Below the pieces are notes generated by a model. That model was not told the origin of the DNA. It searched no databases and saw only the letters and a program-made list of their open reading frames with translations. A stretch of 20,000 nucleotides of DNA. Source: an uncultured virus (IMG/VR IMGVR_UViG_3300027969_000053) (Duplodnaviria > Heunggongvirae > Uroviricota > Caudoviricetes). Of the stretch, positions 483 through 19,479 are shown one piece after another. Made by a program: the position numbers and the translations under genes. Numbering within the stretch: position 1 is the stretch's first letter; every line of letters begins with the position of its first letter. The stretch lies in IMG/VR virus record IMGVR_UViG_3300027969_000053; one strand, written 5' to 3'.

Positions 483-484
483 CT

Positions 485-1405: not shown

Positions 1406-1424
1406 AGGCATTTTAAACTAAAAT
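1396..1424 (+). promoter_or_regulatory. Putative sigma70-type promoter
   Basis: TTTACA (1396-1401), 17 nt spacer, TAAAAT (1419-1424), at the only sizeable intergenic gap of the island, upstream of the 1454 ORF. Confidence 0.45.
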
Positions 1425-1453
1425 ACATAGTACATACACTAATAAGTTAATTT

Positions 1454-3146: not shown

Positions 3147-3679
3147 TTAAACTTATAATCCTTGATGTGGATGGTGTTCTTACTGATGGCACCAAATATT
3201 ATGATCATGATGGGAAAGTAGTTCTTAAACTTTTCTGTGATAAGGATTGGACTGCAATTAAAAGGTTTCGTGCTATTGGAATTCCAGTTGTTTTTATAAC
3301 TGGCGATCCTTATAATGAGATCATTCTTAAGAATAGAAATCTCCCTGTTGTAGTGAATCGTGGCGAAGGATTTCATAAAGACAAAGTAAATTATCTTGCA
3401 GAAGTTCTTGATGATTACAATTGTCTTGTAGAAGAAGTTGTTTATCTTGGAGATGATCTTTTTGATTATGGTATAATGAGAGAGGTTGGATATCCTTATT
3501 GTGTGTTAAATTCACCAAGAACTCTTCAAGACATTTCTGTAGTTCTTCACTGTAATGGTGGAGAAAATGCAGTGATGTGTTTGTTTGAATATCTGGAGGA
3601 TAGAGAATTGATTCCGGTTGTTCCTTATGATGAGGTAATGTCTAAAATTTATGAACTTGACTTGAAGGAAAACTTTTAA
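3143..3679 (+). CDS. HAD-family phosphatase, KdsC/YrbI-like
   Basis: LDVDGVLTDG (motif I), ITG (motif II), K (motif III), YLGDDLFD (motif IV), GGENAV. Confidence 0.82.
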   Translation: MIKLIILDVDGVLTDGTKYYDHDGKVVLKLFCDKDWTAIKRFRAIGIPVVFITGDPYNEIILKNRNLPVVVNRGEGFHKDKVNYLAEVLDDYNCLVEEVVYLGDDLFDYGIMREVGYPYCVLNSPRTLQDISVVLHCNGGENAVMCLFEYLEDRELIPVVPYDEVMSKIYELDLKENF

Positions 3680-4350
3680 TGAAAGACATTTCTCTTTATG
3701 GGCATCTGACTATTGATACGATTCTTGACGGTAATTCTGAAAAGAAAAGTTTAGGATCAATGGCAAATGTTTGGAGATCTTTACTTGAGATTGATTCAAC
3801 ATTAAATATTGGACTTTCTCCAATTGATGTTGGTCAAGCACTTGTTTATATTGATAAACTTTCAGCACAAAGGTATTCAAAAGCAAATTTAAATCTAGTT
3901 CAACACAAAGTAAAAATCTTCGAATCAAAAGTTCACCATCTAATTTATCTCAATGAAATGTCTATTCATGATTTTATTCCAAAACTGAATGGTATTATCA
4001 CTGCAGATATATGTTCTGGAAAATCATTGAATAAAGATTTACTTAAGGGTGTAGATTATCTTTTTATTTCTGATGAAGATATTGATGGCAATCTTTCAGA
4101 TTACGTGAATACAATAAAGGGGTATGTGATACTTCATAGTTCATCAGGAAGCATTGTATCAAATGGAAAAGATGAGTTTTTCTATAAACTGCCTAAAGAT
4201 TTAATACTGAAAGGTGTTAATGTTCTTGGTGCTGGTGATACATTTGCGTCTTGTTTCTTATATAAATTACTAAGGAATGAAGGAAGCATCCACAACTGGA
4301 TCGAATTTGCTCATTTAAAGACAACTGAAATTATTAGGAATTCGATATGA
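3679..4350 (+). CDS. PfkB/ribokinase-family carbohydrate kinase (short)
   Basis: N-terminal GHLTIDTI...LGS and C-terminal NVLGAGDTFAS PfkB signature. Confidence 0.75.
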   Translation: MKDISLYGHLTIDTILDGNSEKKSLGSMANVWRSLLEIDSTLNIGLSPIDVGQALVYIDKLSAQRYSKANLNLVQHKVKIFESKVHHLIYLNEMSIHDFIPKLNGIITADICSGKSLNKDLLKGVDYLFISDEDIDGNLSDYVNTIKGYVILHSSSGSIVSNGKDEFFYKLPKDLILKGVNVLGAGDTFASCFLYKLLRNEGSIHNWIEFAHLKTTEIIRNSI

Positions 4351-5504
4351 AACCAAATATTCTTGTTCCGATGGCGGGACTTGGTAGTAGATTTATTAAA
4401 GAAGGATTTAAAGTACCAAAGCAGTTAATTAATATCAAAGACAAACATCTAATTGATATTTCGCTTGATTGTTTGAACTATGAAGATTGTAATCTAATCT
4501 TCGTGGTTAGGGATGAAACTGTTTATAATTTTCATATTGATGAACTCCTAAAGAAAAAGTTTGGTGAAGATATCAAGATTGTTATTATTGATAAACTTAC
4601 TGATGGATCTGTGAGCAGTTGTCTGTATGCAGAAGAATATATTGATAATGATGCGCCTCTTGTAATTCATACTCTAGATATTGAATTCCGTCCAGTATTT
4701 GATCCGCATACTATTAATAACTTGAATGCAGATGGACTCCTTTTGACATTTAAATCAAATTCTGCAAATTATAGTTATGCTGATGTTAATGAAGATGGAT
4801 ATGTAAAAAGAACTGCTGAAAAGAAAGCAATTAGTTCTAATGCCTGTGTTGGTATCTATGGATTCAAAAAAGGATCCGACTTCTGCAAGTATGCAAAGGA
4901 AATGATCGAAAGAGATATTAGAACTAATAATGAGTTTTATATTGCACCTTTGTATAATCTTCTTATTGATGATTGTAAGAAAATCGTTACTTCGGATGTA
5001 GATAAAATGCATGTATTTGGAACTCCTGATGAGTTTCATTTCTACAAAGAAAATGTCATTCGTAAGGTTGGTGATAAACCAATTGCTATTTGCTCAGACC
5101 ATTCTGGATTTGAATCAAAGGAAAAGTTTAAACATATTCTAGAAAAACACAATCTTGAGTATATTGATTTTGGAACTATCTTGAATAAGGATTGTGATTA
5201 TAGTGATTATATTGCACAAGCAGTTAAAGCAATTGCTGAGCGTGATTGTGATTATGGATTTGGTTTCTGTAGAACAGGTCAAGGTGTGAATATTTGTGCT
5301 AACAAATACAAAGGTATTCGTTCAGCACTTATCTATGATGATTTCTCTATGGAGATGGCAATCCGACATAATTGTGCTAACTTTTTTGCAATTCCTGCAA
5401 AAGATTATACTATCGAAAAAATGGATAAGTATTTGGAAATCTGTTCTACTCATAACTTTGATGGCGGTCGTCATCAGGTTCGTATTCAGGAATTAGAAAA
5501 ATGA
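4347..5504 (+). CDS. Fusion of a sugar-phosphate nucleotidyltransferase-like domain and a RpiB/LacAB sugar-phosphate isomerase domain
   Basis: N-terminal PMAGLGSRF...PKQLI, EKKAIS, NNEFYIAPLYN, FGTPDE. C-terminal SDHSG, DFG, DY, CRTGQG, ANKYKGIRSA, HNCAN, FDGGRHQVRI (RpiB). One continuous frame. Confidence 0.85.
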   Translation: MKPNILVPMAGLGSRFIKEGFKVPKQLINIKDKHLIDISLDCLNYEDCNLIFVVRDETVYNFHIDELLKKKFGEDIKIVIIDKLTDGSVSSCLYAEEYIDNDAPLVIHTLDIEFRPVFDPHTINNLNADGLLLTFKSNSANYSYADVNEDGYVKRTAEKKAISSNACVGIYGFKKGSDFCKYAKEMIERDIRTNNEFYIAPLYNLLIDDCKKIVTSDVDKMHVFGTPDEFHFYKENVIRKVGDKPIAICSDHSGFESKEKFKHILEKHNLEYIDFGTILNKDCDYSDYIAQAVKAIAERDCDYGFGFCRTGQGVNICANKYKGIRSALIYDDFSMEMAIRHNCANFFAIPAKDYTIEKMDKYLEICSTHNFDGGRHQVRIQELEK

Positions 5505-5821
5505 TTCAAGCAAATATTGTTGACTTTAAAGCAGGATGGTTTGTTGGGGACTTTGAACCATCTATTTTTAAGAATCCATTTTTTGAAGTTGCACACCATT
5601 CTCACACAAAAGGTCAACAAACTTTTCCTCATTACCATGCAGTCACTAATGAACTTAACTACATTGTAAAAGGTGAACTAATAGTATCTGGAAAGCATTT
5701 GAATGCAGGTAATATGTGGATCTATGAACCAAAGGAAATTTCTGATGTTGAGTTCTTGAGTGATGTTGATCTTATAGTAGTGAGATGGCCGTCTATTCCT
5801 TCGGATAAGTATATGGTATGA
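5501..5821 (+). CDS. Small cupin-fold protein
   Basis: GWFVGDFEP, HYH...ELNYIVKG cupin-like metal motif; ATGA-coupled to both neighbours. Confidence 0.65.
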   Translation: MIQANIVDFKAGWFVGDFEPSIFKNPFFEVAHHSHTKGQQTFPHYHAVTNELNYIVKGELIVSGKHLNAGNMWIYEPKEISDVEFLSDVDLIVVRWPSIPSDKYMV

Positions 5822-6285
5822 AACTGATAGCACATAGAGGTAATATTGTAGGACCTAATCCTCTAGAGGAGAATAAACTAGAATACATTGAAGCAGCAAT
5901 TGCAGGTGGATATGATGTTGAGATTGATGTAAGATGGGAAGATCATCAGTTTTATTTGGGACATGATGGACCACAATATTATGTCCCTATGACTTGGTTA
6001 GTTAAAAGAAAAGATAAACTTTGGATTCATTGTAAAGATTTTAAATCTTTGAATATTTTTTCTAATAGTCCAATAGATTTTAACTTTTTTTGGCATGAAA
6101 ACGATAAGTATACTTTGACTAGTAAAGGTTATATTTGGACTTATCCTGGGCAATTATTTGAAAATAATTCTGTTATTGTAATGCCAGAAGTATTCGACTT
6201 GCAAAATATTCAAGATAATGGTACAATAGCATACAGCAAAAAATCTTTTGCTGTATGTAGTGACTATGTGGAAAAATTTAAATGA
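5818..6285 (+). CDS. Glycerophosphodiester phosphodiesterase (GDPD)-like short protein
   Basis: LIAHRGN, EN, VEIDV, LGHD, WIHCK, VCSDY motifs. Confidence 0.7.
   Translation: MKLIAHRGNIVGPNPLEENKLEYIEAAIAGGYDVEIDVRWEDHQFYLGHDGPQYYVPMTWLVKRKDKLWIHCKDFKSLNIFSNSPIDFNFFWHENDKYTLTSKGYIWTYPGQLFENNSVIVMPEVFDLQNIQDNGTIAYSKKSFAVCSDYVEKFK
6199..6227 (+). promoter_or_regulatory. Possible internal sigma70-type promoter
   Basis: TTGCAA (6199-6204), 17 nt spacer, extended -10 TGgTACAAT (6219-6227), about 55 nt upstream of the 6282 ORF. Confidence 0.35.
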
Positions 6286-6893
6286 CATCTACGATTTCCC
6301 CAGTATTTAAAGAATTAAAACAATATGATAAAATTAATGTTATAGATGTTGGATCTGCAAGAGCATCTTTTTTGGTAGAATTGGAAAAATCCTTTGATCT
6401 AAAAAATGTTTATTCTATAGGAATTGATCCAATTGATTATGGAGTAGAATCTCATTATGATAAGTTTTATCGTGTTTGTCTGGATGACGTTAAAACTCCT
6501 CAAAAGCAAATATTTTATAACGATGATCAATCCTCTTCGCTGCTTTCTTCCAAAGGTGAAAAAATGGGCTTGGTTGACATTTTAAATATCAATAGCATTA
6601 TCGATGTTGATATACCAGAAAATATTATACATTTTATTAAAATAGATGCAGAAGGAAAGGATTTGTCTATTGTAAAATCTTTATCAAAACAAAATTTAAA
6701 TAGAACAAAATTTATTGCAATAGAATGTCCAAATAAAATTCCAAGATATGATGGCGAATATATTAAAAAAGATTGTATTGAATATTTTAATTCTATAAAT
6801 TTTGAATTTTTTTATGAATACGATACTAATATTGAATCTTGGAACAAATCAGATTTGAGTGATGTCGTTTTTATAAACAAACGAGAATTATGA
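6282..6893 (+). CDS. FkbM-like methyltransferase
   Basis: VIDVGSA, GIDP, SSSLL, FIKIDAEGKDLSIVKS, FIAIE. Confidence 0.7.
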   Translation: MTSTISPVFKELKQYDKINVIDVGSARASFLVELEKSFDLKNVYSIGIDPIDYGVESHYDKFYRVCLDDVKTPQKQIFYNDDQSSSLLSSKGEKMGLVDILNINSIIDVDIPENIIHFIKIDAEGKDLSIVKSLSKQNLNRTKFIAIECPNKIPRYDGEYIKKDCIEYFNSINFEFFYEYDTNIESWNKSDLSDVVFINKREL

Positions 6894-7630
6894 AAGTAGC
6901 ATTATGTTTATCCGGTCAACCAAGAGTAGTTGACATTGGGTTTCAAAAACTAAGCCAATCAATTCTTCAGCACAATGATGTTGATGTGTTTATTCATACT
7001 TGGTTTGATCCTGAAAATCTTAGTACAAATTCTGTCATTCCTGGCAGAGAATCTCATAGGTTAGATCCTCAAGCAATTGATAAATTGATTCATTATTATC
7101 AACCAAAACGCATTATGGTTGAAAAACCAAAAAAGTGGTCAAAAAGATATGAGTTTCCTGATAAGGTTTTTACACATTCGCATACTTGGGCACTTGAAGT
7201 TCCTGTAGGATTGGAAGCGGCAAAAGATTATATTTGTGATACTACAAATAGTATGTTTTATAGTATTATGATGTCAAATCTTTTGAAGGAGCAATATTCA
7301 ACAGAAATCGGAATTGAATATGATTTAGTAATTCGAAATAGAATTGACTATTCTCCTCATGTAGTGCTAAAATTGAATGAGATTCCAATAGATGATTGTA
7401 CACTAATATATCAAGATCTATATCAACCTGATGGTATGATTAGTGATTGGTTTGGTATGGGATCAACAAACACTATGAATGTTTTTTGTGGCGTATATAA
7501 TCAAATAGGTCATCTCATCCGACAATCAAATGAAGTTGATGGATATTGGTGCAATGAACTTCTTCTTAAACATCATATCAAAAATAATAAAATTAAAACA
7601 AATCCTATAGACTATCAAGTTCACTATTAA
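6890..7630 (+). CDS. Hypothetical protein, probable glycan-modifying enzyme or glycosyltransferase
   Basis: [40 protein letters not shown]; a pattern recurrent in viral glycan islands. Confidence 0.55.
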
Positions 7631-7631
7631 C

Positions 7632-8657
7632 ATGAAGAAAGCACTTATTACTGGCATTACTGGTCAAGATGGATCATATCTTGCGGATTTACTTTTGAGC
7701 AAAGGATATGAAGTTCATGGAATTATTCGTAGAAATTCAACATCAGATTGTACTGATAGAATTAATTATCTTTTAGGAAATCCCAAAATCACTTTACATT
7801 ACGGAGATCTAACTGATTTCTCAAATATTACATCTATCATTCAAGAAACTCGTCCTGATGAGATCTATAATCTTGCAGCACAAAGTCATGTAAAAGTATC
7901 TTTTTCCAATGCACTTTATACTGCTGATGTAGATGCTTTAGGTGTTTGTCGTATTCTTGAAGCACTACGAATTCTTGGCATGATTAATACGACCAAGTTT
8001 TATCAGGCAAGCACTTCAGAAATGTATGGTCTTGTTCAAGAAATTCCTCAACGTGAAGGTACAAAATTTCATCCAAGATCTCCTTATGGTGTGGCAAAAC
8101 TTTATGCTTATTGGATTACTAAAAACTATCGTGAAGCATATGGTTTGTTTGGATGTAACGGAATTCTTTTTAATCATGAAAGTCCTCGTCGCGGAGAAAC
8201 TTTTGTGACTCGTAAGATTACTAAAACTCTTGCAGAGATCAAGAATGGTAAACGTAGTCTACCATTAGAACTTGGTAATATAGACGCAAAACGTGATTGG
8301 GGTCATGCAAAAGATTATGTGGAGGCAATGTGGTTAATACTTCAACGTAATAAACCAGATGATTATGTTGTTGCAATGGGTGAACAGCATTCTGTTCGTG
8401 AATTTGTTGAGATTGCCTGTGAACATTTTGGATTTGATATTGAATGGAAAGGAGAGGGAATAGAGGAGGTGGCAGTCTTTAGAAATACAAATAATGTTCT
8501 TATAAAAATTAATTCAGAATTTTATCGTCCTGCTGAAGTTGATTCTCTTGTTGGTGATTCTAGTTATACTAAAAGCAGAATTGGTTGGATTCCCAGATAC
8601 TCTTTTTCTGATCTTGTAACGGAAATGTGCGATAGTGATTTGGAGGCAACAAAGTGA
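7632..8657 (+). CDS. gmd: GDP-mannose 4,6-dehydratase
   Basis: [81 protein letters not shown]. Confidence 0.96.
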
Positions 8658-9583
8658 AGAAAAGGATTGTATTTTGGGTAGAAAATAAACCATATCAAAC
8701 TTTTTCTTACATCTATGCTGGAATGAAAAAAGCATTTGAAAGATTGGGTTGTGAAACATATTGGTTTAGTGATTCTAATTATCCTTCAAAATTGGAGTTT
8801 GATTACTCGGATTGTATTTTTTTTGTAGATAATCAAGGTCCACTTGATTGGAATGTTCCTATTATTGATAGTGGAATTTATTTTTCTTATGATAAATTTA
8901 CAAATCTGGATAAGTATCTTGATAAGGTCAAGTGTCTTGTGAATTATCGAGTTGCTGAATTCAAAAAACCAATTCCGGATAATGATAGGTATATTGAAGT
9001 TGAAAAAGGAGTTACTTTTGATACTCAAGCACCAGAACCTTATAATGTTGTTTATTTTAGTTGGGCAACTAATTTGCTTCCTGATGAAATTGATTTTGAT
9101 TGGGCCAATAAACAGAGAAATGATGAATATAATTTTGTTGGTACTATTCATTCTCCCCGTCCAAATTCCAAACCCCTTCATCAAGATTTTATTGATATTG
9201 TAAAAAATAAAAATATTACATTCAATCATTATAATCCTAATATTAATCCTGCAACTGATCAGGAACATATTGAGATTCTTCAAAAATCGATGTTTGTTCC
9301 AGATTTTAGACCACAAGAACAAAAAGATAATTGGTATGTTTCATGTCGTGTTTTGAAGGCAATTAGTTATGGTTGTCTTACTGTTTCGGATTCTTCTTAT
9401 CTTAAACACTTTATTGATGATAGTCTTTTGGTTTCTGAAAATGCTCAAGAAATATTTGATCTTGGAATGAGAAATCAGTATAATAAAGATTTAATTGTAC
9501 ATCAAATGGAAATTATAAAAAGAGATCATACTTATTTAAATAGGTGCAAAGGTATTCTTCAAATCGTAGAAAATATAAAATGA
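8654..9583 (+). CDS. Putative glycosyltransferase (GT-B, CgeB/Glyco_trans_1_2-like)
   Basis: GTG start in a GTGA overlap; [25 protein letters not shown]-terminal pattern. Confidence 0.55.
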
Positions 9584-10437
9584 AAATTACAATTTTAGGT
9601 TCCAGTGGACAGATCGGTGCCTATCTTACCGAGTATCTGCGTAAAAAAGGACATGTAGTTGAAGAGTTTGATGTAGTTAATGGACCTTCACAGGATATGA
9701 CCGTAATTCCTAATCAATATCTTGAAATAAAAATTAGAGATTCTGATTTTGTATTCTTCCTTGCATTTGATGTGGGTGGATCACGTTATCTTAAAAAGTA
9801 TCAACATACTTTCCAGTTCATTGATAATAATACTCGTTTGATGGCAAATGCTTTTGGATTTCTTCAAAAGTATAATAAGAGGTTCATCTTTGCCTCATCT
9901 CAGATGAGTAACATGAGTTATTCTCCTTATGGAGTTCTCAAGAACGTTGGTGAACTGTATACCAAATCACTTAAAGGACTGATCGTTAAGTTTTGGAATG
10001 TTTATGGTATTGAGAAAGATCAAGAAAAAGCACACGTCATCACAGACTTTATTCGTAAAGGATTTGAGACTGGTTTGATTGATATGCTTACTGATGGCGA
10101 AGAGGAACGTGAGTTTCTTTATGCTGAAGATTGTTGTGAAGCACTTGAAACCATTATGGAGAATTATACTGACTTTACCTCAGAAGATAATCTTCATATT
10201 ACTAGTTACCATCCAACTAAGATTATTGATATTGCAAATATGATTATTGGGCAATTTAATTTGATTGGTAAGTATGATATAAAACTTCAACCATCTACCG
10301 AAAAAGATAGTGTTCAGATGGATAAAAAGAATCGTCCAGATTTATATCTTTCTAAGTGGTGGATTCCCAAAACAACAATAGATCAAGGAATTTCAAAAGT
10401 TTTTAAAAGTATGGAGAAAAATTATGTTAGCGTGTAA
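9580..10437 (+). CDS. NAD-dependent epimerase/dehydratase (extended SDR)
   Basis: Likely start is ATG 9580 (ATGA overlap). GSSGQIG, FLAFDVGGSRY, ASSQM, YGVLK (YxxxK), NVYG, REFLYAED. Confidence 0.85.
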   Translation: MKITILGSSGQIGAYLTEYLRKKGHVVEEFDVVNGPSQDMTVIPNQYLEIKIRDSDFVFFLAFDVGGSRYLKKYQHTFQFIDNNTRLMANAFGFLQKYNKRFIFASSQMSNMSYSPYGVLKNVGELYTKSLKGLIVKFWNVYGIEKDQEKAHVITDFIRKGFETGLIDMLTDGEEEREFLYAEDCCEALETIMENYTDFTSEDNLHITSYHPTKIIDIANMIIGQFNLIGKYDIKLQPSTEKDSVQMDKKNRPDLYLSKWWIPKTTIDQGISKVFKSMEKNYVSV

Positions 10438-11266
10438 TCAACTTGGCAATAATGGAAGACTTGGGAATCAAATGTTCCAATATGCTGCACTAAAAGGTAT
10501 CGCACATCGTAGAGGATTTGATTATTGTATTCCCCCATTTGACCAACAAGGAATTGATAATTATGGACTTGGTGATGCCTTTAATATTAAATCTTTTACT
10601 GGTATAGCAAATCTTCCATCAGTTGGAGAACCTCATTTTCATTACAGTGAAGAATTTCACAATACTTGTCCAGATGATGTTACTCTTGTTGGATATTTCC
10701 AAACTGAAAAATATTTCAAAGATATTGAAGACCAAATCCGCCAAGACTTTATTTTTAGAGATGAATGGATGGAACCCTGTAAGGGGTTTCTTCAAGAGTT
10801 TGAGGGACAAGAGATCGCTTTCCTTCATGTTCGCCGTGGAGATCCAAATCTAGTGGATCGTAGGGGATTTAAATGGGCATACGTGAATTGTTCCGATCAA
10901 CATCCAGTTCAATCTTTGGAATATTATGAGGAGGCAATCAAGAGATTGCCAGAAGATATGCCGATACTTGTTTTTTCTGATTCAATTGAATGGTGTAAAG
11001 AACAAGAATTCTTTCAACCAGATAGATTTTTATTTTCGGAATCAGAAGACAAATATTCAGATGGCGCTTTGGTTCCATATGTTGATTTGTGCTTGATGTC
11101 CTTGTGTGATCATGCTATAATTGCTAATAGTAGTATGAGTTGGTGGGGTGCTTGGTTGATGAAAAATCCAAACAAAAAAGTAATCGCACCAAAAATGTGG
11201 TTTGGAACAGCATATTCTCACCACATCACAAAAGACATTTACTGCGATAATTGGGAGATTATTTGA
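10424..11266 (+). CDS. GT11 family alpha-1,2-fucosyltransferase-like glycosyltransferase
   Basis: GRLGNQMFQYA, GYFQTEKYF, HVRRGD, VFSDSIEWCK, NSSMSWWGAWL. Confidence 0.9.
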   Translation: MLACNQLGNNGRLGNQMFQYAALKGIAHRRGFDYCIPPFDQQGIDNYGLGDAFNIKSFTGIANLPSVGEPHFHYSEEFHNTCPDDVTLVGYFQTEKYFKDIEDQIRQDFIFRDEWMEPCKGFLQEFEGQEIAFLHVRRGDPNLVDRRGFKWAYVNCSDQHPVQSLEYYEEAIKRLPEDMPILVFSDSIEWCKEQEFFQPDRFLFSESEDKYSDGALVPYVDLCLMSLCDHAIIANSSMSWWGAWLMKNPNKKVIAPKMWFGTAYSHHITKDIYCDNWEII

Positions 11267-12093
11267 TGATTTATATTTCTGGGTCTAATGGATTGATCGG
11301 AACAGAACTGACAAAAAATATTCAAAACTATATTCCAATCTCTTATAGGAATCAATATCCAGAAATAAATTTTTTATCGAATTCTACATTGATTCATTTA
11401 TCTTCATCAACCACTCCTAGAAATAGTTTTGGTGAATTGCAATCATCATTTAATAGTGATGTTTTGATTCCTTTTGAATTGTTTCAAAATTATTTAAAAG
11501 TAAATTCAAATGGAAGAATTATTTTTCTTTCTACTGCTGGGGATTTACATAGTTCTGAATTTGATGTTTGGTCTAATGAAGAATCAGAACCTATTCCAAA
11601 GTCAATTTATGGCGCACATAAATTACTTTTAGAACATTGTACAAAGTTACTTCATAGTCAATATGATTTTACGAGTATAGTTTTAAGAACTACAAATGTT
11701 TATGGTGGAAAGATTGACCCAAAAAGAGTGAATGGATTGATTGATAAATTGATTTCAAATAATAATGAAATCGTAATAACATCAAATATTAAAACGACAG
11801 TTAATTTTATTCATATTAGTGATTTGATTAGTTTAATTTTGCAATCATTGGATGCGAATCTTAAAGGATTTAATTTATTTTTGGTTGGCAGTGAAAAATC
11901 CATTTCTATTCAGGATTTGATTGAAAAAATATCATCATATATTTCTCCAAATATTGTATTTAAAAATGAGAATTCAAATCCCTCATACATAAACATAGAC
12001 ACCTCAAAGGTGCAAAAATATCTCAATTGGAAATGCAAATATTCAATTGATAGTGGTATAATTAAACAAGTACAATCTTTGAATTCTTTATGA
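11266..12093 (+). CDS. NAD-dependent epimerase/dehydratase (divergent SDR)
   Basis: Likely start is ATG 11266 (TGATG overlap). GSNGLIG, FLSTAG, YGAHK (YxxxK), NVYG, NFIHISD. Confidence 0.75.
   Translation: MIYISGSNGLIGTELTKNIQNYIPISYRNQYPEINFLSNSTLIHLSSSTTPRNSFGELQSSFNSDVLIPFELFQNYLKVNSNGRIIFLSTAGDLHSSEFDVWSNEESEPIPKSIYGAHKLLLEHCTKLLHSQYDFTSIVLRTTNVYGGKIDPKRVNGLIDKLISNNNEIVITSNIKTTVNFIHISDLISLILQSLDANLKGFNLFLVGSEKSISIQDLIEKISSYISPNIVFKNENSNPSYINIDTSKVQKYLNWKCKYSIDSGIIKQVQSLNSL
12054..12062 (+). promoter_or_regulatory. Possible extended -10 promoter element
   Basis: TGgTATAAT at 12054-12062, about 28 nt upstream of the GT6 start; the -35 region is poor. Confidence 0.3.
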
Positions 12094-12809
12094 AAATTGC
12101 TATTTCATTTTTTGGGACAGGAAGTTATTTGAATTTTCTTCCTAATTGGTATACGTCCATTCATGATAATTTTCTTCCAGGTGTAGAAAAAAAGTTTATT
12201 GTATTTACAGATGGAGAGGGTGATTTTCCAGAAGATGTTACTAAAATAGAAATAGAACATTTTGGGTGGCCTGATGTTTTTTACAAAACATTTGAAACAA
12301 TCTTGAAAGCAAAAGAAATTATTTCTGAATGCGATTGGTTTATTTCTATTGATGCGGATATGATTGTTAATGGCAAAGTATCTATTGAAGAATTTATTGA
12401 TGAAACCAAAGATTATATTGGAGTTCATCATCCTTGTGCTTATTTAAAACTTCCACCACACGACAAATATCCAGGATCTTTTGATGTAAATCCACTATCA
12501 AATGCTTACATCACCGAAGATATGGATACTTCTGTTTATTATCAAGGATGTTTATGGGGTGGAAAGGTTCCTGAAATTATTGAAATGATGGAACTTTTAG
12601 ATGAATGGACAAAGAAAGATATTGAAAAGAATTCTACTCCCGTTTGGTATGAAGAATCTTATTTTAATAAGTTTTTTATTACAAACAAAGAAAGAGTACA
12701 TACACTTCCTCCGTCATTTGCTTATCCAGAAGACTTTAAACAATATTGCGATTTTGAAGAAAAAATCACACATATCTCTAAAAATAATCAACAATATCAT
12801 AATCAATGA
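12090..12809 (+). CDS. GT6 family glycosyltransferase (ABO/alpha-1,3-Gal(NAc) transferase fold)
   Basis: FGTGSY, VFTD, GWP, DAD, HP, YYQGCLWGG, WYEESYFNKFF (cf. GT6 WHDESHLN). Confidence 0.82.
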   Translation: MKIAISFFGTGSYLNFLPNWYTSIHDNFLPGVEKKFIVFTDGEGDFPEDVTKIEIEHFGWPDVFYKTFETILKAKEIISECDWFISIDADMIVNGKVSIEEFIDETKDYIGVHHPCAYLKLPPHDKYPGSFDVNPLSNAYITEDMDTSVYYQGCLWGGKVPEIIEMMELLDEWTKKDIEKNSTPVWYEESYFNKFFITNKERVHTLPPSFAYPEDFKQYCDFEEKITHISKNNQQYHNQ

Positions 12810-13588
12810 CTATGACTAAAAATTTATCAGTTTATTATCATATCTGGAGTCCTGGCGGAACGGATCTTTGGAAATTGATGGTAGACGAACAACTTAAAAG
12901 AATTTATCGCAATGGACTTACGGAAAGTGCTTCTATCTATTGCGCTATTAATGGACCACAAGCAAACCGAATTGCAGAATATATCTCCATCTATGATTGG
13001 TTAAATGTTCTTGATGTTTCAATTGATGAAAGTGAGTATGAAGGATTCACTTTAAAGAGAGCATACGAAGAGGCACATTTCAATCCAGATTTGAAAGCAG
13101 TTGCTTATCTTCATACAAAAGGCATTAGTCATATGTGTGGAGTTCGGGATCATTACTCTGATCGTAAGTTTAGAGCAGTGAATAGTTGGAGACATCAAAT
13201 GGAATGGGGCATTCTTGATCGGTGGAAAGAAGCGGTAGAAAAACTTGACGAATATCAAGTTTCTGGTGTAAATTATTGTTTGGATCCTTGGCCTCATATG
13301 AGTGGAAACTTTTGGTGGGCACGGGCGGATTATCTTAAAACTTTAATTCATCCCACTAGAGATAGATTTCCAAATGACAATAGAGATTTTGGACCAATTC
13401 AAAGAATGAATTTTGAAAAATGGATTGGACTGAATAATCCAAAATCTTTCAGTTTTTACGATGCTCCATTTAGTTATGATTTTAAAGGAATGACACCAGA
13501 TGTACAACCAACACCCCCAGGAGAACCGCATTGGTTCTGGTTGTACCGAGACGACATTGAACCCTATTATAGAAAGGAAGGTAACTGA
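12806..13588 (+). CDS. Hypothetical protein, probable glycosyltransferase-like
   Basis: YEGFTL, YLHTKG, SWR, HMSGNFWWARADY, EKWIG; motifs typical of viral glycan-island proteins. Confidence 0.55.
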   Translation: MTMTKNLSVYYHIWSPGGTDLWKLMVDEQLKRIYRNGLTESASIYCAINGPQANRIAEYISIYDWLNVLDVSIDESEYEGFTLKRAYEEAHFNPDLKAVAYLHTKGISHMCGVRDHYSDRKFRAVNSWRHQMEWGILDRWKEAVEKLDEYQVSGVNYCLDPWPHMSGNFWWARADYLKTLIHPTRDRFPNDNRDFGPIQRMNFEKWIGLNNPKSFSFYDAPFSYDFKGMTPDVQPTPPGEPHWFWLYRDDIEPYYRKEGN

Positions 13589-13589
13589 T

Positions 13590-14312
13590 ATGACTTTTGG
13601 ATGCTTTCATACAGTGTATGAAAATAAAAGAGCAACAGAGTTTATTTTGCAAGAGTTTAGAAAATATTATCCAGATGCTCCTTATACTTTGATTTGTGAT
13701 GGTGGAGTAGATTACTCTGATCTTGCTGTAAAGTACAATTGTAAATATATTCATTCGTATATGCATATTGGCAGAAGAAATTCTGGGGATCCTTCTGGAA
13801 TTTATGGATTCACAAAGGATGAAAGTCTTCATTGGATTCATATGTTTAGGGAGGCAGCAAGACACGTTAAAGAAAATGGTGGAACACATATGATTATGAT
13901 GGAAGATGATGTTCTCACTCAAGGTGAAGTGAAAATTAATCCAATTTGGGAATGTGCTGGATTTGATGTTCCGGGAAATAAAATTTCTCCTGGTCTTTTG
14001 AAGTTTATTGAAGAAAAGTATAATGCAAAACCAAATGTTGATTGGTATGGTGCTGGTGGCGGAACCATTTATAATATTGAAACATTTTTAGATAACTATC
14101 ATAAAATCTATGATTTTATTGATTTTGATTTTGAAAATATTCTAGAAAATATGGATTATAGATTTGGTTGGTTGGATCTTTATATGCAAATTGCTTATTT
14201 TGTAATTGGTAAACATTATTCAATTAATACAAATTTAACTGAAGTTTGGAAAACACCAAACTTTAGGGATAGTGAATTTACTCTTGTTCATGCTTATAAG
14301 GAATTATACTGA
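13590..14312 (+). CDS. Putative GT-A fold glycosyltransferase
   Basis: Likely start is ATG 13590, 1 nt after the previous stop. LICDGG, MMEDDV, GAGGG, C-terminal LVHAYK. Confidence 0.55.
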   Translation: MTFGCFHTVYENKRATEFILQEFRKYYPDAPYTLICDGGVDYSDLAVKYNCKYIHSYMHIGRRNSGDPSGIYGFTKDESLHWIHMFREAARHVKENGGTHMIMMEDDVLTQGEVKINPIWECAGFDVPGNKISPGLLKFIEEKYNAKPNVDWYGAGGGTIYNIETFLDNYHKIYDFIDFDFENILENMDYRFGWLDLYMQIAYFVIGKHYSINTNLTEVWKTPNFRDSEFTLVHAYKELY

Positions 14313-15289
14313 TGAAAATTGCATTTATTGGACCTGGAATTATGCCCATTCCTCCTGATGGGTGGGGGGCAGTTGAATCTTTAATCTGGGAAATTGCTTG
14401 TGAACTTGGGGAAATGGGTCATAGTGGAACAATTATTAATGATCCAAATTTGAATGAAATTATTAAAACAGTCCAACAAGATGAGTACGATTTCATTCAT
14501 TTATTTTATGATGTTTTTCACCCAATTATGGATGAGATTAAAAGGTTGTGTCCCAAATCTATAACTGCGATTAGTAGTGCTTATCCTTATGTGGATCAAT
14601 TTCAATTTCATCAAAGAGATGGATATGATAAAACATATAAGTGGTTGATTGAACAAAAAAATCATTATAATTTTTGTTTGTCTGATAAAGATTTTGAAAC
14701 ATTTAAAAAGGGTGGAGCAGACGAATCAAAACTTTTGAGACTTGGACTTGGTGCTCAACATAAGAATTTTAAATTTAATATTGAATGCGAAAAACCAAAT
14801 AAAACCCTATATATGGCAAAAATTGAAGTTAGAAAACGTCAATGGGTCTATCAGTCAATTGATAGCATTGAGTTTGTTGGTAGATATTCTCCCACAACTA
14901 CATTTGATAAACTTCATAAAAGTTATATTGGAGAGTGGACAACAGAACAAAAACACGAAAATGTAACCAAGTATGCAAATTTACTTCTTCTTTCTGATGG
15001 TGAAAATGGGACTCCGCTCGTAATTAAAGAGGCACTTGTTTCTGGTATTGGTGTGGTTTGTTCTAAGTATGCTGCTTATGATTTGGATCATAGTCTTCCA
15101 TTTATTACAGTTGTTCCTGATGATAAATTAAATGACTTGAATTATGTGAGTAATGCAATTAAAGAAAATCGTGAAGTATCTGTGAACATGCGACAGCAAA
15201 TTCATGAATATGGTGTAAATAATTTTTCTTGGGAGAATATTGTAAAACCTTATATTCAAACTATTGAAAAATTGGAGAGTGTTCAGTGA
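14312..15289 (+). CDS. GT4-like glycosyltransferase (paralog 1)
   Basis: IGPGIMPIPPDGWGAVE, AKIEVRKRQ, LLSDGENGTPLVIKEALVSG (Ex7-8E), FSWE. Confidence 0.85.
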   Translation: MKIAFIGPGIMPIPPDGWGAVESLIWEIACELGEMGHSGTIINDPNLNEIIKTVQQDEYDFIHLFYDVFHPIMDEIKRLCPKSITAISSAYPYVDQFQFHQRDGYDKTYKWLIEQKNHYNFCLSDKDFETFKKGGADESKLLRLGLGAQHKNFKFNIECEKPNKTLYMAKIEVRKRQWVYQSIDSIEFVGRYSPTTTFDKLHKSYIGEWTTEQKHENVTKYANLLLLSDGENGTPLVIKEALVSGIGVVCSKYAAYDLDHSLPFITVVPDDKLNDLNYVSNAIKENREVSVNMRQQIHEYGVNNFSWENIVKPYIQTIEKLESVQ

Positions 15290-16239
15290 AAATCTGCATC
15301 ATTGGTCCTGGATTTTCTCAAATTCCACCAGTTGGTTGGGGTGCTGTTGAAATTGTAATTTGGGATACAGCAAATACGTTGAAAGAATTAGGACATCAAG
15401 TAGATATTATTAATACTACTGATCCCCAACAAATTCTTTCAACAATTAATCAAATTAATCCGGATTTTGTTCACGTTCATTATGATGATTATGTCTTCTT
15501 GTATCCATATATTCAATTTCCAAAAGCAATTACAACGCATTATGGATATCTAGAAAGACCAGAAATGTATGGTGCTTACTCATATAAAGCAAATGGATTT
15601 GCAAATATCAAACCAAATGTTTTTGCTTTGTCTGATGGTATTAAAAGTATCTATCAAAATCAAATGAGAATTCCGGAACAAAACTTATATACTGTTCCAA
15701 ATGGTGTGATTAATGAGAATTTTAAATTTACTAATACACCAGAATTTCCAAATAGATCAATCTACCTAGCAAAAGTAGATTACAGAAAGAGGCAGTGTTT
15801 ATTTCAATCAATATCTTCAATTTATTATGCTGGAAATATTGTAGATGAAAGATTTGATAGAAATAAAAATTATCTTGGGGAATGGTCAAAAGAAGATTTG
15901 TATAATAATTTAACTGATTATGCGAATCTTATTTTACTCTCTGATGGTGAAGCACATCCACTTGTTTGTATGGAAGCACTCTCTGCTGGATTGGGTCTTG
16001 TGATTTCTGAATGGGCAACTGCTAATTTGGATTTAAATAAAGATTTCATTACTGTTATTCCTGAAAGTAAAATTATAGACTTGGAATATGTGTCTTTAAA
16101 AATTGAAGAAAATAGAACAATATCTTTACAAAAAAGAAATGAAATAGTAGAGTATTCAAAAGAATTTGCTTGGAAAAAACAAATTGAAAACTATTATATT
16201 CCTGCTGTAAAACAAGTTATGCAAAAATCTAATGGATAA
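15286..16239 (+). CDS. GT4-like glycosyltransferase (paralog 2)
   Basis: GTG start; IGPGFSQIPPVGWGAVE, VPNG, AKVDYRKRQ, LLSDGEAHPLVCMEALSAG, FAW. Confidence 0.85.
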   Translation: MKICIIGPGFSQIPPVGWGAVEIVIWDTANTLKELGHQVDIINTTDPQQILSTINQINPDFVHVHYDDYVFLYPYIQFPKAITTHYGYLERPEMYGAYSYKANGFANIKPNVFALSDGIKSIYQNQMRIPEQNLYTVPNGVINENFKFTNTPEFPNRSIYLAKVDYRKRQCLFQSISSIYYAGNIVDERFDRNKNYLGEWSKEDLYNNLTDYANLILLSDGEAHPLVCMEALSAGLGLVISEWATANLDLNKDFITVIPESKIIDLEYVSLKIEENRTISLQKRNEIVEYSKEFAWKKQIENYYIPAVKQVMQKSNG

Positions 16240-17029
16240 AAACAAATCTACCTACAAACTTCAAGGAATTGGTCCAATTTATTACATTAATCTTGATGGA
16301 CAACCAGAAAGAAAACAATATGTAGAAGATCAATTTGAGTATTGGGAAATTGAAAATTACACTCGTATTTCTGCTTATGATGGTCGTAATGATGATTTAA
16401 GTGATATTATATCTGGTCGTTATCCAGATAATATGACTTCTGGTGAGATTGGGTGTGTCACCTCCCACCTTAAAGCAATCAAGCATTGGTACGAAACAAC
16501 AGATAGTCCATATGCAATTATTATGGAAGATGATGTTGATCTGCAACTTGTAAAGAATTGGGATTTTTCTTGGAAAGATTTTTACTCATTGATTCCCTAT
16601 GATTGGGATGTAGTTCAACTTGCTATTATTTGTACTGGACCTTTACATATCAAACTTCATAAAAGATTTGTAAATAACTTTTCTACTGCCGCTTATATGA
16701 TTAATCGGCATCACGCAGAAAAACTTTTAAAGTTTCATATTCGGGGTGATAAGTATAAACTTGATAATGGATGCAAACCAAGAGCGGTTGCAGATGATCT
16801 AGTTTATAATTCTGGAAATACTTATAGTATTCCTTTACTTCTTTATAAAATTCAATTGGGTTCTTCTATTCACCCAGAGCACGTTGATATTTTTCACAAA
16901 TCAAGTCACGATGGTCTCTTAGAATTTTGGCAACAGAAAGGGGCAGGATTGAATATTCGGGAACTGATGGATTATGATCCTTATCTTGGTAGAATTACTG
17001 AAAATGTTCCAGAACAAAGTAACACTTGA
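16232..17029 (+). CDS. GT25 family glycosyltransferase
   Basis: YYINLD..ERK, RISAYDG, GEIGCVTSH, IMEDDV, WDVVQL, STAAYMI. Confidence 0.85.
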   Translation: MDKNKSTYKLQGIGPIYYINLDGQPERKQYVEDQFEYWEIENYTRISAYDGRNDDLSDIISGRYPDNMTSGEIGCVTSHLKAIKHWYETTDSPYAIIMEDDVDLQLVKNWDFSWKDFYSLIPYDWDVVQLAIICTGPLHIKLHKRFVNNFSTAAYMINRHHAEKLLKFHIRGDKYKLDNGCKPRAVADDLVYNSGNTYSIPLLLYKIQLGSSIHPEHVDIFHKSSHDGLLEFWQQKGAGLNIRELMDYDPYLGRITENVPEQSNT

Positions 17030-17054
17030 CAAGTCTTAACATTTCCTATATAAT
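17026..17054 (+). promoter_or_regulatory. Consensus sigma70 (early-type) promoter of the hli cluster
   Basis: TTGACA (17026-17031), 17 nt spacer, TATAAT (17049-17054); the -35 box overlaps the GT25 stop codon. Confidence 0.85.
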
Positions 17055-17081
17055 TGTGTAGTAAAACTTCATAAAACAAAA

Positions 17082-17291
17082 ATGACTGTAACAACCAATG
17101 AGCGCGGGCAAAATAATATGTGGGCACTTGAGCCAAAAGTTTATATTTCTGATGAAGATGCAATCAAATATGGAATTAAAACTTATGCCGAACGTGCAGA
17201 GCTTGCTAATGGAAAATTTGCGATGCTTGGATTTGTTGCCGCAATTATATCTTATGCGACAACAGGACACCTCTTTTTTGGTGTAATCTAA
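17082..17291 (+). CDS. hli: High-light inducible protein (Hlip), long form
   Basis: MTVTTNERGQNNMWALEP N-terminus and AERAELANGKFAMLGFVAA...TG helix motif. Confidence 0.92.
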   Translation: MTVTTNERGQNNMWALEPKVYISDEDAIKYGIKTYAERAELANGKFAMLGFVAAIISYATTGHLFFGVI

Positions 17292-17377
17292 TGGGAGAAG
17301 CAATCTTTACCATCGCAAGCATTGCCTTCTTTGTGCTTCTTTCACATTCTATCAATCAACTTTCAGAAACTTACTAA
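17291..17377 (+). CDS. 28-aa hydrophobic microprotein MGEAIFTIASIAFFVLLSHSINQLSETY (not in the ORF track)
   Basis: The ATG overlaps the hli stop (TAATG); the ORF fills the gap between the two hli genes and has one predicted TM helix. Confidence 0.65.
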   Translation: MGEAIFTIASIAFFVLLSHSINQLSETY

Positions 17378-17390
17378 CGGAGAAACAAAA

Positions 17391-17510
17391 ATGAAATTCG
17401 GATTTACCCCTGAGGCAGAACTTCTTAATTCTCGCCTCGCAATGCTTGGATTTGTAATCGCAGTTGGCACTTATCTCGCCACTGGGCAAATTCTGCCTGG
17501 AGTATGGTGA
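17391..17510 (+). CDS. hli: High-light inducible protein (Hlip), short form, 39 aa
   Basis: ATG 17391 preceded by GGAGA; MKFGFTPEAELLNSRLAMLGFVIAVGTYLATGQILPGVW. Confidence 0.93.
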   Translation: MKFGFTPEAELLNSRLAMLGFVIAVGTYLATGQILPGVW

Positions 17511-17549: not shown

Positions 17550-17582
17550 ATCCTCACTCTAAATAAGGGTGAGGATTTTTTT
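17550..17582 (+). terminator. Rho-independent terminator after hli, with TAAATA at the loop
   Basis: Stem ATCCTCACTCT / AGGGTGAGGAT, loop AAATA, followed by a T-run. Confidence 0.8.
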
Positions 17583-17670: not shown

Positions 17671-17704
17671 TTGACAGGACCCAGGGACCGTGCTATGATA
17701 AATA
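17671..17704 (+). promoter_or_regulatory. psbA promoter: sigma70 promoter overlapped by a T4-like late-promoter motif
   Basis: TTGACA (17671-17676), 17 nt spacer, TGcTATGAT (17691-17699); ATAAATA at 17698-17704. Confidence 0.8.
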
Positions 17705-17740
17705 AGTCAGGAAACGAAGACAAATCTTTACGTTTCTTAA

Positions 17741-17850
17741 CCTTCTGTAACCGAGATCATCAGAAGTAAAGCGTCTCTCATATCCGTACTGGAGGGTGGT
17801 ACGGAAATAACTGTAACATTCAGTTCCCCCTGAATTCTTATTTACCCTTT
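17741..17850 (+). ncRNA. Structured psbA 5' leader, probably the PhotoRC-II RNA motif
   Basis: Stems CTTCTG/CAGAAG, TCCGTAC/GTACGGA and ATTCAG/CTGAAT; loop-to-downstream complementarities GAGA/TCTC and AGGGT/ACCCT; located directly upstream of a cyanophage psbA. Confidence 0.65.
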
Positions 17851-17858
17851 AACGAAAA

Positions 17859-18938
17859 ATGACTGCTACAATTGCTACACGTTCTGATAATAATGTCTGG
17901 GAACAGTTTTGTTCTTGGATTACTTCTACCGACAACCGTCTTTATGTTGGTTGGTTCGGTGTTCTACTTATTCCAACAGTTTTAACTGCAACCATCTGCT
18001 TTATTCTTGCTTTTATTGCGGCACCTCCAACAGATCTGGACGGAATTAGGGAAGCAGTATCTGGTTCTCTAATGTATGGCAATAACATTATTAGTGCTTC
18101 AGTAATTCCTAGTTCTAATGCCATAGGATTGCATCTATACCCAATTTGGGAAGCACAATCTCTGGAAGAATGGCTATACAATGGAGGCGAATATCAACTT
18201 ATTGTTTTCCATTTTATGATTGCAATTTATGCTTATATGGGTCGTGAATGGGAACTTTCATATAGGTTGTCAATGCGCCCTTGGATTTGTGTTGCTTATA
18301 GTGCTCCTGTTGCTGCTGCTACTGCTATCTTTCTTGCTTATCCAATTTCACAAGGTTCATTTTCTGATGGATTTCCTTTGGGAATTTCGGGCCAATTTAA
18401 TTTTATGTTAGTCTTTCAGGCAGAGCATAATATTCTTATGAATCCGTTTCATATGTTAGGTGTTGCTGGTGTTTTTGGTGGCGCTTTAGTTTCTGCCACT
18501 CACGGATCACTCGTAACAAGTTCTCTTGTGAGAGAAACTACTGAGGAGGAAAGTCAAAATAAAGGATATAAATTTGGTCAAGAACAAGAAACTTATAATT
18601 TAGTTGCCGCACACGGGTATCTGGGTCGTCTTCTGTTTCAATATGCATCCTTTAATAATAGTCGTTCATTGCACTTTGTGATGGCTGCACTACCTGTTAT
18701 TGGTATTTGGTTTGCTGCTTGTGGAATTTTTATGTCTGGTTTTAATCTCAACGGTCTAAATTATGTTCATAGTATCCAAGATAACCAAATGAGAACAATT
18801 CCTACTTGGGCGGACGTATTGAACCGGGCAAATTTGGGAATTGAAACAATTCACGAAAGAAATAGCCATCAGTTTCCATTAGATTTGGCATTTTCTGCTG
18901 GTTCGGAAATTGCACTTATTGCACCTTCAGTTGGTTGA
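17859..18938 (+). CDS. psbA: Photosystem II reaction centre protein D1, intronless and highly divergent
   Basis: 359 aa, colinear with standard D1 numbering. D61, H118, E130, Y161, D170, E189, H190, H198, H215, H252, S264, H272, H332, E333, H337, D342 and A344 are all present. Confidence 0.98.
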
Positions 18939-18963
18939 TAAAAAACTGAATATATGATAAATG

Positions 18964-18991
18964 AAGAGACCCATCAAAGGGTCTCTTTTTT
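18964..18991 (+). terminator. Rho-independent terminator of psbA
   Basis: AAGAGACCC-ATCAAA-GGGTCTCTT followed by TTTT. Confidence 0.85.
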
Positions 18992-19026: not shown

Positions 19027-19479
19027 ATGAAAGAATTAGAAAGGAAATGTAGAGACTGTGGTTTAATTAAATCAATTGCTGAATATTATAGAACAACTTA
19101 TAAGAAAAAGGAATGTTATCATACTAATTGCAAATCTTGTTATATTAAAAGAAATCAGGAAAGATATGACCCAATAAAACAAAGAGATAATAATTTAAAA
19201 CGTTTATATGGAAAGCAATTTGGAATTGATGAATATAATAAACTTCTAGAGAAGCAAGATTTTAAATGTGCTATATGCAAAACTACTGAAATTAAGGGTA
19301 GAAAAACTGGTAGAGGGGGGCAGATAGAAGTTTTTTATGTAGACCACGATCATAAGACGGGAAAAGTTCGTGGATTGCTTTGTAATATATGCAATAGAAC
19401 TATGGGTTATGTTGGTGAAAATTCTGGAGTGTTGGAAGAAATGATTAAATACCTACAAAAACACCAACCCACACCTTGA
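19027..19479 (+). CDS. Endonuclease VII-family free-standing (homing) endonuclease, F-CphI-like
   Basis: N-terminal CxxC...CxxC; Q..KCAIC, VDHDHKTGKVRGLLCNICNRTMG EndoVII signature; directly downstream of psbA. Confidence 0.85.
   Translation: MKELERKCRDCGLIKSIAEYYRTTYKKKECYHTNCKSCYIKRNQERYDPIKQRDNNLKRLYGKQFGIDEYNKLLEKQDFKCAICKTTEIKGRKTGRGGQIEVFYVDHDHKTGKVRGLLCNICNRTMGYVGENSGVLEEMIKYLQKHQPTP

Follow-up and report, generated by a model that had tools for sequence, protein, structure and literature searches.

The psbA gene carried by an uncultured tailed virus (IMG/VR record IMGVR_UViG_3300027969_000053; Caudoviricetes), of which a stretch of 20,000 nucleotides was analysed (the window), probably encodes a complete D1 protein maintained by selection, which descends from the ordinary Group 4 (G4) D1 of phages and picocyanobacteria and gained two separable sets of substitutions on the viral lineage. 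The source of the window is a large T4-like freshwater cyanomyovirus of low guanine-plus-cytosine (GC) content. D1 is among the most conserved of proteins, and its natural variants (D1:1/D1:2, D1′, far-red D1 and D1INT) guide the understanding of how photosystem II (PSII) is tuned. The protein encoded in the window is referred to below as the query.

A complete D1 with its full residue set

The open reading frame (ORF) of psbA runs uninterrupted for 359 codons (Table 1), and its product belongs to the Photo_RC family (PF00124; 296.4 bits, cut-off 27; E 2e-88). Solved D1 chains align with it end to end without internal gaps, the top match being 7yq7_A (the 'D1 3' chain, 640 bits), and residues 1-344 number collinearly with canonical D1. 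A preliminary description, made from the letters of the DNA, had claimed an intact frame encoding 13 retained residues and 36 substitutions that spare the catalytic sites, and this account proved correct on each point. D61, Y161, D170, E189, H190, H198, H215, H272, H332, E333, H337, D342 and A344 are all present in the query, which was compared in an alignment of 298 D1 sequences; R334 is also present, and residue 130 is E, the 'high-light' state. H118, Y126, N181, H252, S264, F265, E244, Y246, N298 and E329 are invariant in a 17-sequence alignment (A1), the QB hydrogen-bond partners H215, H252, S264 and F265 are unaltered, and every donor-side, acceptor-side and bicarbonate ligand is kept.

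Set against the consensus of 64 cellular G4 rows, the 36 substitutions are all real: V58T, I60L, P66A, G80A, A81S, F93L, P111E, G122A, G138S, G164S, M172F, T179Q, H195N, F211V, M214T, Y235K, E243Q, I248L, F255L, I259L, F274V, L275M, W278L, T286A, S291F, T292M, M293S, A294G, F300L, F302Y, N303V, Q304H, V330T, M331I, A336S and N338Q. Missing from that earlier list were L41V, L120M and V157I, at near-invariant sites, and S345F at the CtpA cleavage site.

Divergence at conserved positions

Over residues 1-344, the cellular G4 row nearest to the query is 78.4% identical to it, and for 67 other viral rows the corresponding value has a median of 88.6%; the same measure gives 81.6-89.2% for 16 Group 3 (G3) rows and 65-71% for five atypical rows. 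Sites at which 152 reference G4 rows are conserved to 97% or more were termed near-invariant, and 198 of the 344 mature positions qualify; the reference set consists of the best hits to the query, so that bias, if any, is towards similarity. The query is changed at 16 of these 198 sites (L41V, V58T, P66A, A81S, L120M, G122A, G138S, V157I, G164S, M172F, T179Q, M214T, I248L, F255L, L275M and V330T), where the reference rows have a median of 0 and a maximum of 17 changes, the G3 rows 3-14 and the atypical (G2-like) rows 35-74. Divergence at conserved sites is far above chance, and the view of this protein as a highly divergent viral D1 was borne out. It is not unique among viral D1 proteins: two other IMG/VR groups are about as divergent, namely L055/L082, with 16-17 near-invariant changes, and L073-L077, with 9-10 in L073/L076.

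The first of these groups (L055:2719-3795 and L082:305-1381) reaches 75.5-76% best identity to cellular D1 and branches inside viral G4 on a long branch (100/100; support is given throughout as ultrafast bootstrap/SH-aLRT). Its members carry L158 and A286 of the D1′ signature (A80 as well in L055), M172L, and a 'CF' pair at 292-293 as found in the Synechocystis and Arthrospira D1′ rows, and may represent a viral mimic of D1′.

All 512 GenBank phage records with a match are 60-80% identical to the query, the best being the Synechococcus phage S-CREM1 at 76.6%, and Synechococcus phage S-RIM8 reaches 75.5%. A scan of one genome per prokaryotic species yielded at least 587 D1-relative stretches, of which the best 80 are 72-78% identical; among 401 genomes of the family containing a Cyanobium genome, 317 have D1, and the best 150 of about 650 matches are 74-77% identical.

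Placement inside Group 4

Three trees were computed, with FastTree (213 rows), with a quick IQ-TREE run and with a careful IQ-TREE run (105 rows, LG+C20+F+G4); in the last, the bootstrap values were not yet fully stable. Each tree puts the query in a core clade inside G4, which comprises 14 rows in the careful tree (99/99). Around this core stands a series of six successive outgroups: P0309, L010 and P0311 (99/98); P0021 (100/99); the P0018 group (97/82); P0037 (94/96); P0079, P0085 and P0323 (99/99); and P0060 (99/90). The series lies inside a viral group, itself within the picocyanobacterial-plus-phage clade of G4 (99/98). The G3 rows (P0072, P0082, L178, P0066, L181 and others), including Thermosynechococcus PsbA2-type rows and a Synechocystis psbA1-type paralogue, fall outside that clade, and four G2 rows, recognised by an inserted residue after H252, E170 and lost ligands, fall outside G4. 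Constraining 23 divergent rows to lie outside G4 lowered the log-likelihood by 93.5, and this topology was rejected by the approximately unbiased (AU) test (p-AU 0.0014). One contig binned as a Rubrivivax (betaproteobacterial) metagenome-assembled genome (L120) also has a psbA of phage type, which is 77% identical to the query and groups with the viral rows; the contig is probably viral and mis-binned.

The branch to the query is long. Measured from the base of G4, its root-to-tip length is 1.11, whereas 27 cellular rows have a median of 0.17; when the picocyanobacterial-plus-phage node is taken as the start, the medians are 0.96 for the core and 0.48 for 33 other rows. On the strength of the nesting, the AU rejection and these lengths, the lineage is best seen as a strongly accelerated offshoot of standard viral D1 and not as a class beside Groups 0-4 (G0-G4). 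The proposal of a candidate new D1 class in the preliminary description is not supported, in view of this nesting, the graded intermediates that lead to ordinary phage D1 and the AU result.

The residues of the query point the same way. Everything expected of standard D1 (Groups 3 and 4 sensu Cardona et al., 2015; PMC4408414) is present. All G3 sequences share A80, L158 and A286 (PMC4408414); the query has A80 and A286 but F158, and groups with G3 in no tree. It lacks the insertion at G253 and the incomplete oxygen-evolving complex (OEC) ligands of G2 rogue D1. In Group 1 (ChlF or super-rogue) H252 is replaced, W256 is present and OEC ligands are missing (PMC4408414), whereas the query has H252, G256 and all ligands. 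Neither W126 and W260, the markers of D1INT, nor the pair Y120 and T155 of the chlorophyll f-related far-red D1 (D1FR) is found (PMC9740203), the query having Y126 and F260, and M120 with T155.

Two separable sets of substitutions

Residue states were tabulated for 50 rows. A first set of substitutions occupies the QB niche (F211I/V, M214T, I248L, F255L, I259L, F274V, L275M and W278L/V); it arises at the P0037 node and persists, with T286A appearing one node later. A second set lies on the donor side (G80A, G164S, M172F, T179Q, H195S/N, S291F and A294G) and arises at the P0021 node. The QB set occurs alone in the P0018 group and P0037 (10 rows), the donor-side set alone in the core rows P0014, P0298 and P0299, whose 211-278 region is fully standard, and both occur together in the remaining 14 core rows and the stem-2 rows. 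Since the donor-side set is present there beside a standard 211-278 region, P0014, P0298 and P0299 are natural mosaics.

In the full alignment F172, S164 and T214 are confined to this clade, and Q179 is also found in one other row, L023. G164, T179 and M214 are invariant in the 64 cellular G4 and 16 G3 rows, and M172 varies only in D1′, where it is L. The positions concerned adjoin cofactors in other D1 proteins. The M172 side chain lies 3.8 Å from the ChlD1 macrocycle and is replaced by L in PsbA2, and T286 forms a hydrogen bond to PD1 (PMC12107152); the axial water of ChlD1 is hydrogen-bonded by T179 (PMC10498673). On the acceptor side, F211, F255, F274 and L275 form part of the hydrophobic lining of the QB niche (PMC8398153), and the largest contributions to binding of the QB head group come from F255 and F265 (PMC4030317).

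All four G2 rows show states of the QB set, with L255, L259, L/V278 and aliphatic residues at 211, 214 and 274. Within segment 246-269, however, the only departures of the query from standard D1 are three substitutions, and the insertion of G2 is absent; because this segment is otherwise standard the likeness of the QB region to G2 points to convergence rather than import. Compositional bias was considered as a cause of the changes and rejected, because ordinary relatives have the same GC content in psbA (40-41%) and flanks (32-34%) and because both sets are found in L010, whose context has 48% GC.

Selection, introns and recombination

Pairwise ratios of nonsynonymous to synonymous change (dN/dS; Nei-Gojobori) within the core clade are 0.04-0.11 at dS 0.65-1.3, rising to 0.16-0.35 in the four pairs that are most alike; among the ordinary relatives L011-L016 the ratio is 0.08-0.17, apart from a closely related pair at 0.38. 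The assertion that the gene is not decayed is upheld by its intactness and by this purifying selection, and dN/dS near 1 with frequent disruptions among relatives, the signs of relaxed selection named beforehand, were looked for and not seen.

Full-length sequences were found for 37 of the 79 cluster members examined; the others start at an internal Met or break at three recurring points (codons ~89-93, 185 and 331-337). Group I introns (RF00028, 85-111 bits across four loci) were confirmed after about codon 92 in the clade members L025 (2618-2854) and L028 (1207-1443), with 110.6 bits given for this intron, and lie near codon 334 in the ordinary relatives L019 (5890-6194) and L020 (5932-6195). 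The truncated gene calls suggest a third intron site near codon 185. The psbA of the window has no intron, yet an F-CphI-like endonuclease gene follows it. Intragenic recombination and host-phage exchange within psbA are documented (PMC1484495).

One DNA run (X1) has flanks exact to the window and a 900-nt psbA contig with 20 differences, all within 18755-18798 (codons 299-314), a short lumenal-loop stretch of the gene. Breaks in the assemblies fall at the borders of psbA as well (17934-17963 and 18804-18833), and one IMG/VR record (G001) ends at 17477. Together the differences and the breaks suggest strain microdiversity or recombination within psbA.

Distribution and transcription

Close relatives in a large protein collection are 94%, 91%, 84%, 82%, 81% and 80% identical to the query, after which identity reaches a plateau of 73-77%. 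Nine clusters at 90% identity have 25, 85, 3, 27, 41, 1, 14, 1 and 1 members (198 in total), all metagenomic and on contigs of at most 282 kb; the contig with the query protein measures 126 kb. IMG/VR viral contigs with relatives at 83-96% identity are L004-L010, L025 and L028. Parts of the gene were found in 20 run rows, which come from 17 studies and for the most part bear a freshwater or lake label, and the PhotoRC-II motif here stands upstream of psbA on contigs whose matching runs mostly bear the same labels. Classical degenerate psbA primers presumably target the peptides at residues 58-66 and 331-340, two stretches that carry changes in the query; the papers searched gave no confirmation of these targets, and the point was not used as evidence.

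One RNA library, a lake metatranscriptome, yielded three contigs of 165-174 nt exact to psbA at a depth of about 3 and none on the flanks, although the uncovered flanks are no evidence of silence. Two further RNA runs (X18 and X19) yielded only short or diverged pieces that probably stem from relatives, and they were set aside as evidence.

A search of 1.84 billion protein representatives for atypical D1 forms returned mostly fragments and fusions. When IMG/VR was scanned with P0018 for forms carrying the QB set alone, the best among the matches listed, at 86%, was a stem-0 form.

The photosynthesis cassette and its viral context

The psbA gene stands in a typical cyanomyovirus photosynthesis cassette of two hli genes, promoter-like site, PhotoRC-II leader, psbA, terminator and endonuclease (Table 1), and all the marks of a cyanophage psbA cassette (phage genome, hli neighbours and PhotoRC-II leader) are there. 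The promoter, leader and terminator described earlier as intact were each located, the leader by Rfam and the other two by consensus scan. The region holds 15 promoter-like sites against 11.2 expected from shuffles, so that the site listed is weak by itself. Of the 14 related loci searched, 13 have the PhotoRC-II motif upstream of psbA. The endonuclease is 41.9% identical to the annotated F-CphI of the S-PM2 locus over 97% of its length.

Table 1. Features of the psbA region of the window.
Feature	Coordinates	Strand	Evidence or remarks
hli (high-light-inducible protein, 69 aa)	17082..17291	+	PHROG phrog_178, E 1.2e-29; weak Chloroa_b-bind match
Second short hli (39 aa)	17391..17510	+	phrog_178, E 5.2e-17; coordinates read off the sequence
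Terminator-like hairpin closing the hli unit	17550..17576	+	11-pair stem then T run; consensus scan only
Sigma-70-type promoter-like site, TTGACA-17-TATGAT, with TG	17671..17699	+	11/12 matches; consensus scan only
PhotoRC-II RNA motif, psbA 5′ leader	17728..17818	+	Rfam RF01717, 60.4 bits (gathering 39), E 4.5e-09, full model length
psbA, divergent but complete D1 (359 aa)	17859..18938	+	Mature residues 1-344 and a 15-residue C-terminal extension
Terminator-like hairpin after psbA	18963..18988	+	10-pair stem then T run; consensus scan only
Free-standing Endo VII-type homing endonuclease, F-CphI-like	19027..19479	+	Pfam Endonuclease_7, E 5.4e-21; PHROG endonuclease VII

The synteny of a glycosyltransferase family 25 (GT25) gene, hli, hli and psbA is common to the query, the clade loci L005 and L009 and the ordinary-D1 loci L012 and L016. 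In the last two D1 is 73-74% and GT25 67-76% identical to the query, and against L016 the D1 of the query has diverged slightly more than its glycosyltransferase. No psbD was found within 5 kb of the clade loci, and searches with PF00124 of the records G007, G008, G009 (188 kb, 84% complete) and G010 returned psbA only, and of G001 nothing, all of these being genome fragments.

Upstream of the cassette, positions 1-17029 hold some 17 kb of consecutive plus-strand genes for sugar-nucleotide and cell-surface glycan modification, a block unusually large for a phage, with epimerases/dehydratases, GT25, GT6 and GT4/GT1 glycosyltransferases and a heptose-phosphate adenylyl/cytidylyltransferase-like gene. 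G001, a record of 40.5 kb, agrees at every base with window positions 1-17477, and its upstream part encodes a tail fibre protein, primase, nrdA, nrdB and endolysin. Because of these genes the element is recognised as a T4-like cyanophage, of about 31-32% GC. In the same upstream part a GIY-YIG homing endonuclease gene interrupts nrdA, leaving it as two ORFs (L275:8852-12386), and another homing endonuclease lies at L275:3938-4585.

Discussion

The D1 of this virus is alike to the G4 D1 of picocyanobacteria and cyanomyoviruses in fold, length and E130 and in the full Mn4CaO5, YZ, P680, Fe, QB hydrogen-bond and bicarbonate residue set, and cyanomyovirus psbA loci have the same cassette of hli genes, PhotoRC-II leader and F-CphI-like endonuclease. 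It differs from ordinary G4 D1 in a QB niche that has lost F211, F255, F274 and W278, in an altered ChlD1 site (M172F, T179Q), in its 16 near-invariant changes and in a best cellular identity of 77-78%. Like the query, the D1′ proteins of G3 (Thermosynechococcus PsbA2, PDB 7yq2; Synechocystis PsbA1) have the full ligand set, and their count of unusual residues (3-14 near-invariant changes) is comparable to or below that of the query. The two share A80 and A286, and position 172, close to ChlD1, is altered in both (mostly L in G3, F in the query); however, the query keeps F158, where all G3 sequences have L158 (PMC4408414), and G3 keeps T179, G164 and a standard QB niche. The four G2 rogue rows share L255, L259, L/V278, aliphatic residues at 211, 214 and 274, A80 and A286 with the query, and the QB site of G2 has been likened to that of herbicide-resistant mutants, with a semiquinone that is possibly weakly bound (Cardona et al., PMC4408414). 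The G2 rows nevertheless have an insertion after H252, E170, no E189, no D342 and, in three of the four, no E333, whereas the query has none of these departures and keeps S264.

D1INT, found in Nostocales, is an earlier example of a specialised sub-form within G4 that bears a name of its own, although it is cellular and phylogenetically distant from the query. P0065 (Nodularia) and P0099 (Nostoc), both with W260, share V/I211, Q243, L255, V274 and L278 with the query; in these D1INT-like cellular rows the QB pocket has been de-aromatised independently. The psbA locus of S-PM2 resembles that of the window in having an Endo VII-type endonuclease directly downstream. It also has a group I intron, as do the clade members L025 and L028 and the relatives L019 and L020, whereas the psbA of the window has none, and the S-PM2 D1 is not within the 40 phage records closest to the query.

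The intact frame, the full ligand set and a dN/dS of 0.04-0.11 indirectly indicate that this would be a functional, water-oxidising D1, and we infer that it may be 'functionally re-tuned', as the preliminary description had it. Expressed from its own promoter and PhotoRC-II leader, the phage D1 would replace host D1 in host PSII during infection, and the resulting PSII would still oxidise water. The QB set would make the pocket less aromatic, with weaker stacking on the head group and either weaker binding of quinone and semiquinone or altered quinone exchange and inhibitor affinity, while the donor-side set together with T286A would change the environment of ChlD1 and PD1 and so shift site energy and radical-pair energetics. 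The outcome would be a virus-specific D1 isoform comparable in degree to cellular D1′. A bolder version, which we offer tentatively and regard as rather doubtful in its entirety, is that freshwater cyanomyoviruses possess a D1 isoform of their own that retains water oxidation while combining a rogue-like, de-aromatised QB site with a re-engineered ChlD1 site (M172F, T179Q), that the two modules are swapped by intragenic recombination, and that PSII of infected cells has kinetics and energetics unlike those of any cellular isoform.

It could be argued that this is an ordinary phage D1 evolving fast through drift, hitch-hiking and recombination, with near-neutral changes that leave the behaviour of PSII unaltered. 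Phage D1 branches are generally longer (a median of 0.48 from the picocyanobacterial-plus-phage node, against 0.17 for cellular G4 from the G4 base), the two other viral groups (L055/L082 and L073/L076) are as divergent, and most of the substitutions are conservative (I/L/V/M, G/A/S) with all catalytic residues kept. We nonetheless consider this unlikely, because the changes fall at sites invariant in the 64 G4 and 16 G3 rows (G164, T179, M214, and M172 with L only in D1′), are concentrated in two cofactor environments, stay fixed at a dN/dS of 0.04-0.11 and move between lineages as blocks, while relatives of the same synteny and GC content keep a normal D1.

An origin in the host, whereby a special D1 isoform of an unsampled cyanobacterium was captured by the phage, would account for the S336, Q338, M292 and S293 that the query shares with P0107 (freshwater Synechococcus sp. 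UW140), and host-phage exchange within psbA has been documented (PMC1484495). We find it improbable, given that no cellular D1 exceeds 78% identity among the best 80 of at least 587 loci, nor 77% among the best 150 of about 650 matches in the 401 Cyanobium-family genomes, that the clade members with readable context are on viral contigs with hli, PhotoRC-II or GT25 neighbours, and that the intermediate grade starts from viral rows, the stem-0 form L197 being on a viral contig. A new deep D1 class parallel to G0-G4 is scarcely credible. Identity to every known D1 does reach a plateau at 73-78%, and the query has A80 and A286, two of the three residues in the D1′ signature, together with several G2-like QB residues, but the lineage is nested in G4 with high support at seven successive nodes, the AU test speaks against a position outside G4 (p 0.0014), the shared residues arise stepwise on the viral stem and would thus be convergent, and segment 246-269 differs from standard D1 at three positions without the G2 insertion.

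The derivation from ordinary viral G4 D1 by two gained sets should be considered with some caution, as several points weigh against it. No isolate carries this D1 among the 512 GenBank phage records, the best of which is 76.6% identical; the intermediate (P-numbered) rows are known from protein sequences without genomic context, and the group with the QB set alone was not recovered on any IMG/VR contig among the matches listed. The cofactor distances come from papers on other D1 proteins, and the group constrained in the AU test was named after the tree had been seen. Close pairs have higher dN/dS (0.35 for window-L008, 0.24 for L004-L009), and the query against ordinary relatives gives 0.21-0.26, with dN of about 0.25 and a saturated dS of about 1-1.2; the stem branches could reflect relaxed constraint, positive selection and relaxation being indistinguishable at saturated dS. 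The RNA contigs weakly suggest transcription of psbA in situ, as a thin signal in which DNA carry-over is possible.

The literature searched holds no description of this clade or of M172F or T179Q in a viral D1, most subscription journals being outside the coverage, and a preprint (10.64898/2026.07.15.738324) nowhere mentions T179, M172, F255, M214 or P111. The two papers on D1 classification that were searched leave phage D1 aside: neither 'phage' nor 'virus' occurs in PMC4408414, and neither 'phage' nor 'viral' in PMC12096807. Judged by its residues and its place in the trees, the lineage appears to behave like the named specialised sub-forms within standard D1, with the difference that it is viral and carries substitutions unseen in the cellular forms compared.

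The viral lineage thus offers natural substitutions at G164, T179 and M214, which are invariant in the rows compared, and at M172, which varies only in D1′, along with natural chimeras that carry one set each; taken together, these variants provide a natural series of mutants for the study of ChlD1 energetics and QB binding. The case also shows that the D1 of a phage need not closely resemble the host protein, a point relevant to models of viral photosynthesis in lakes.

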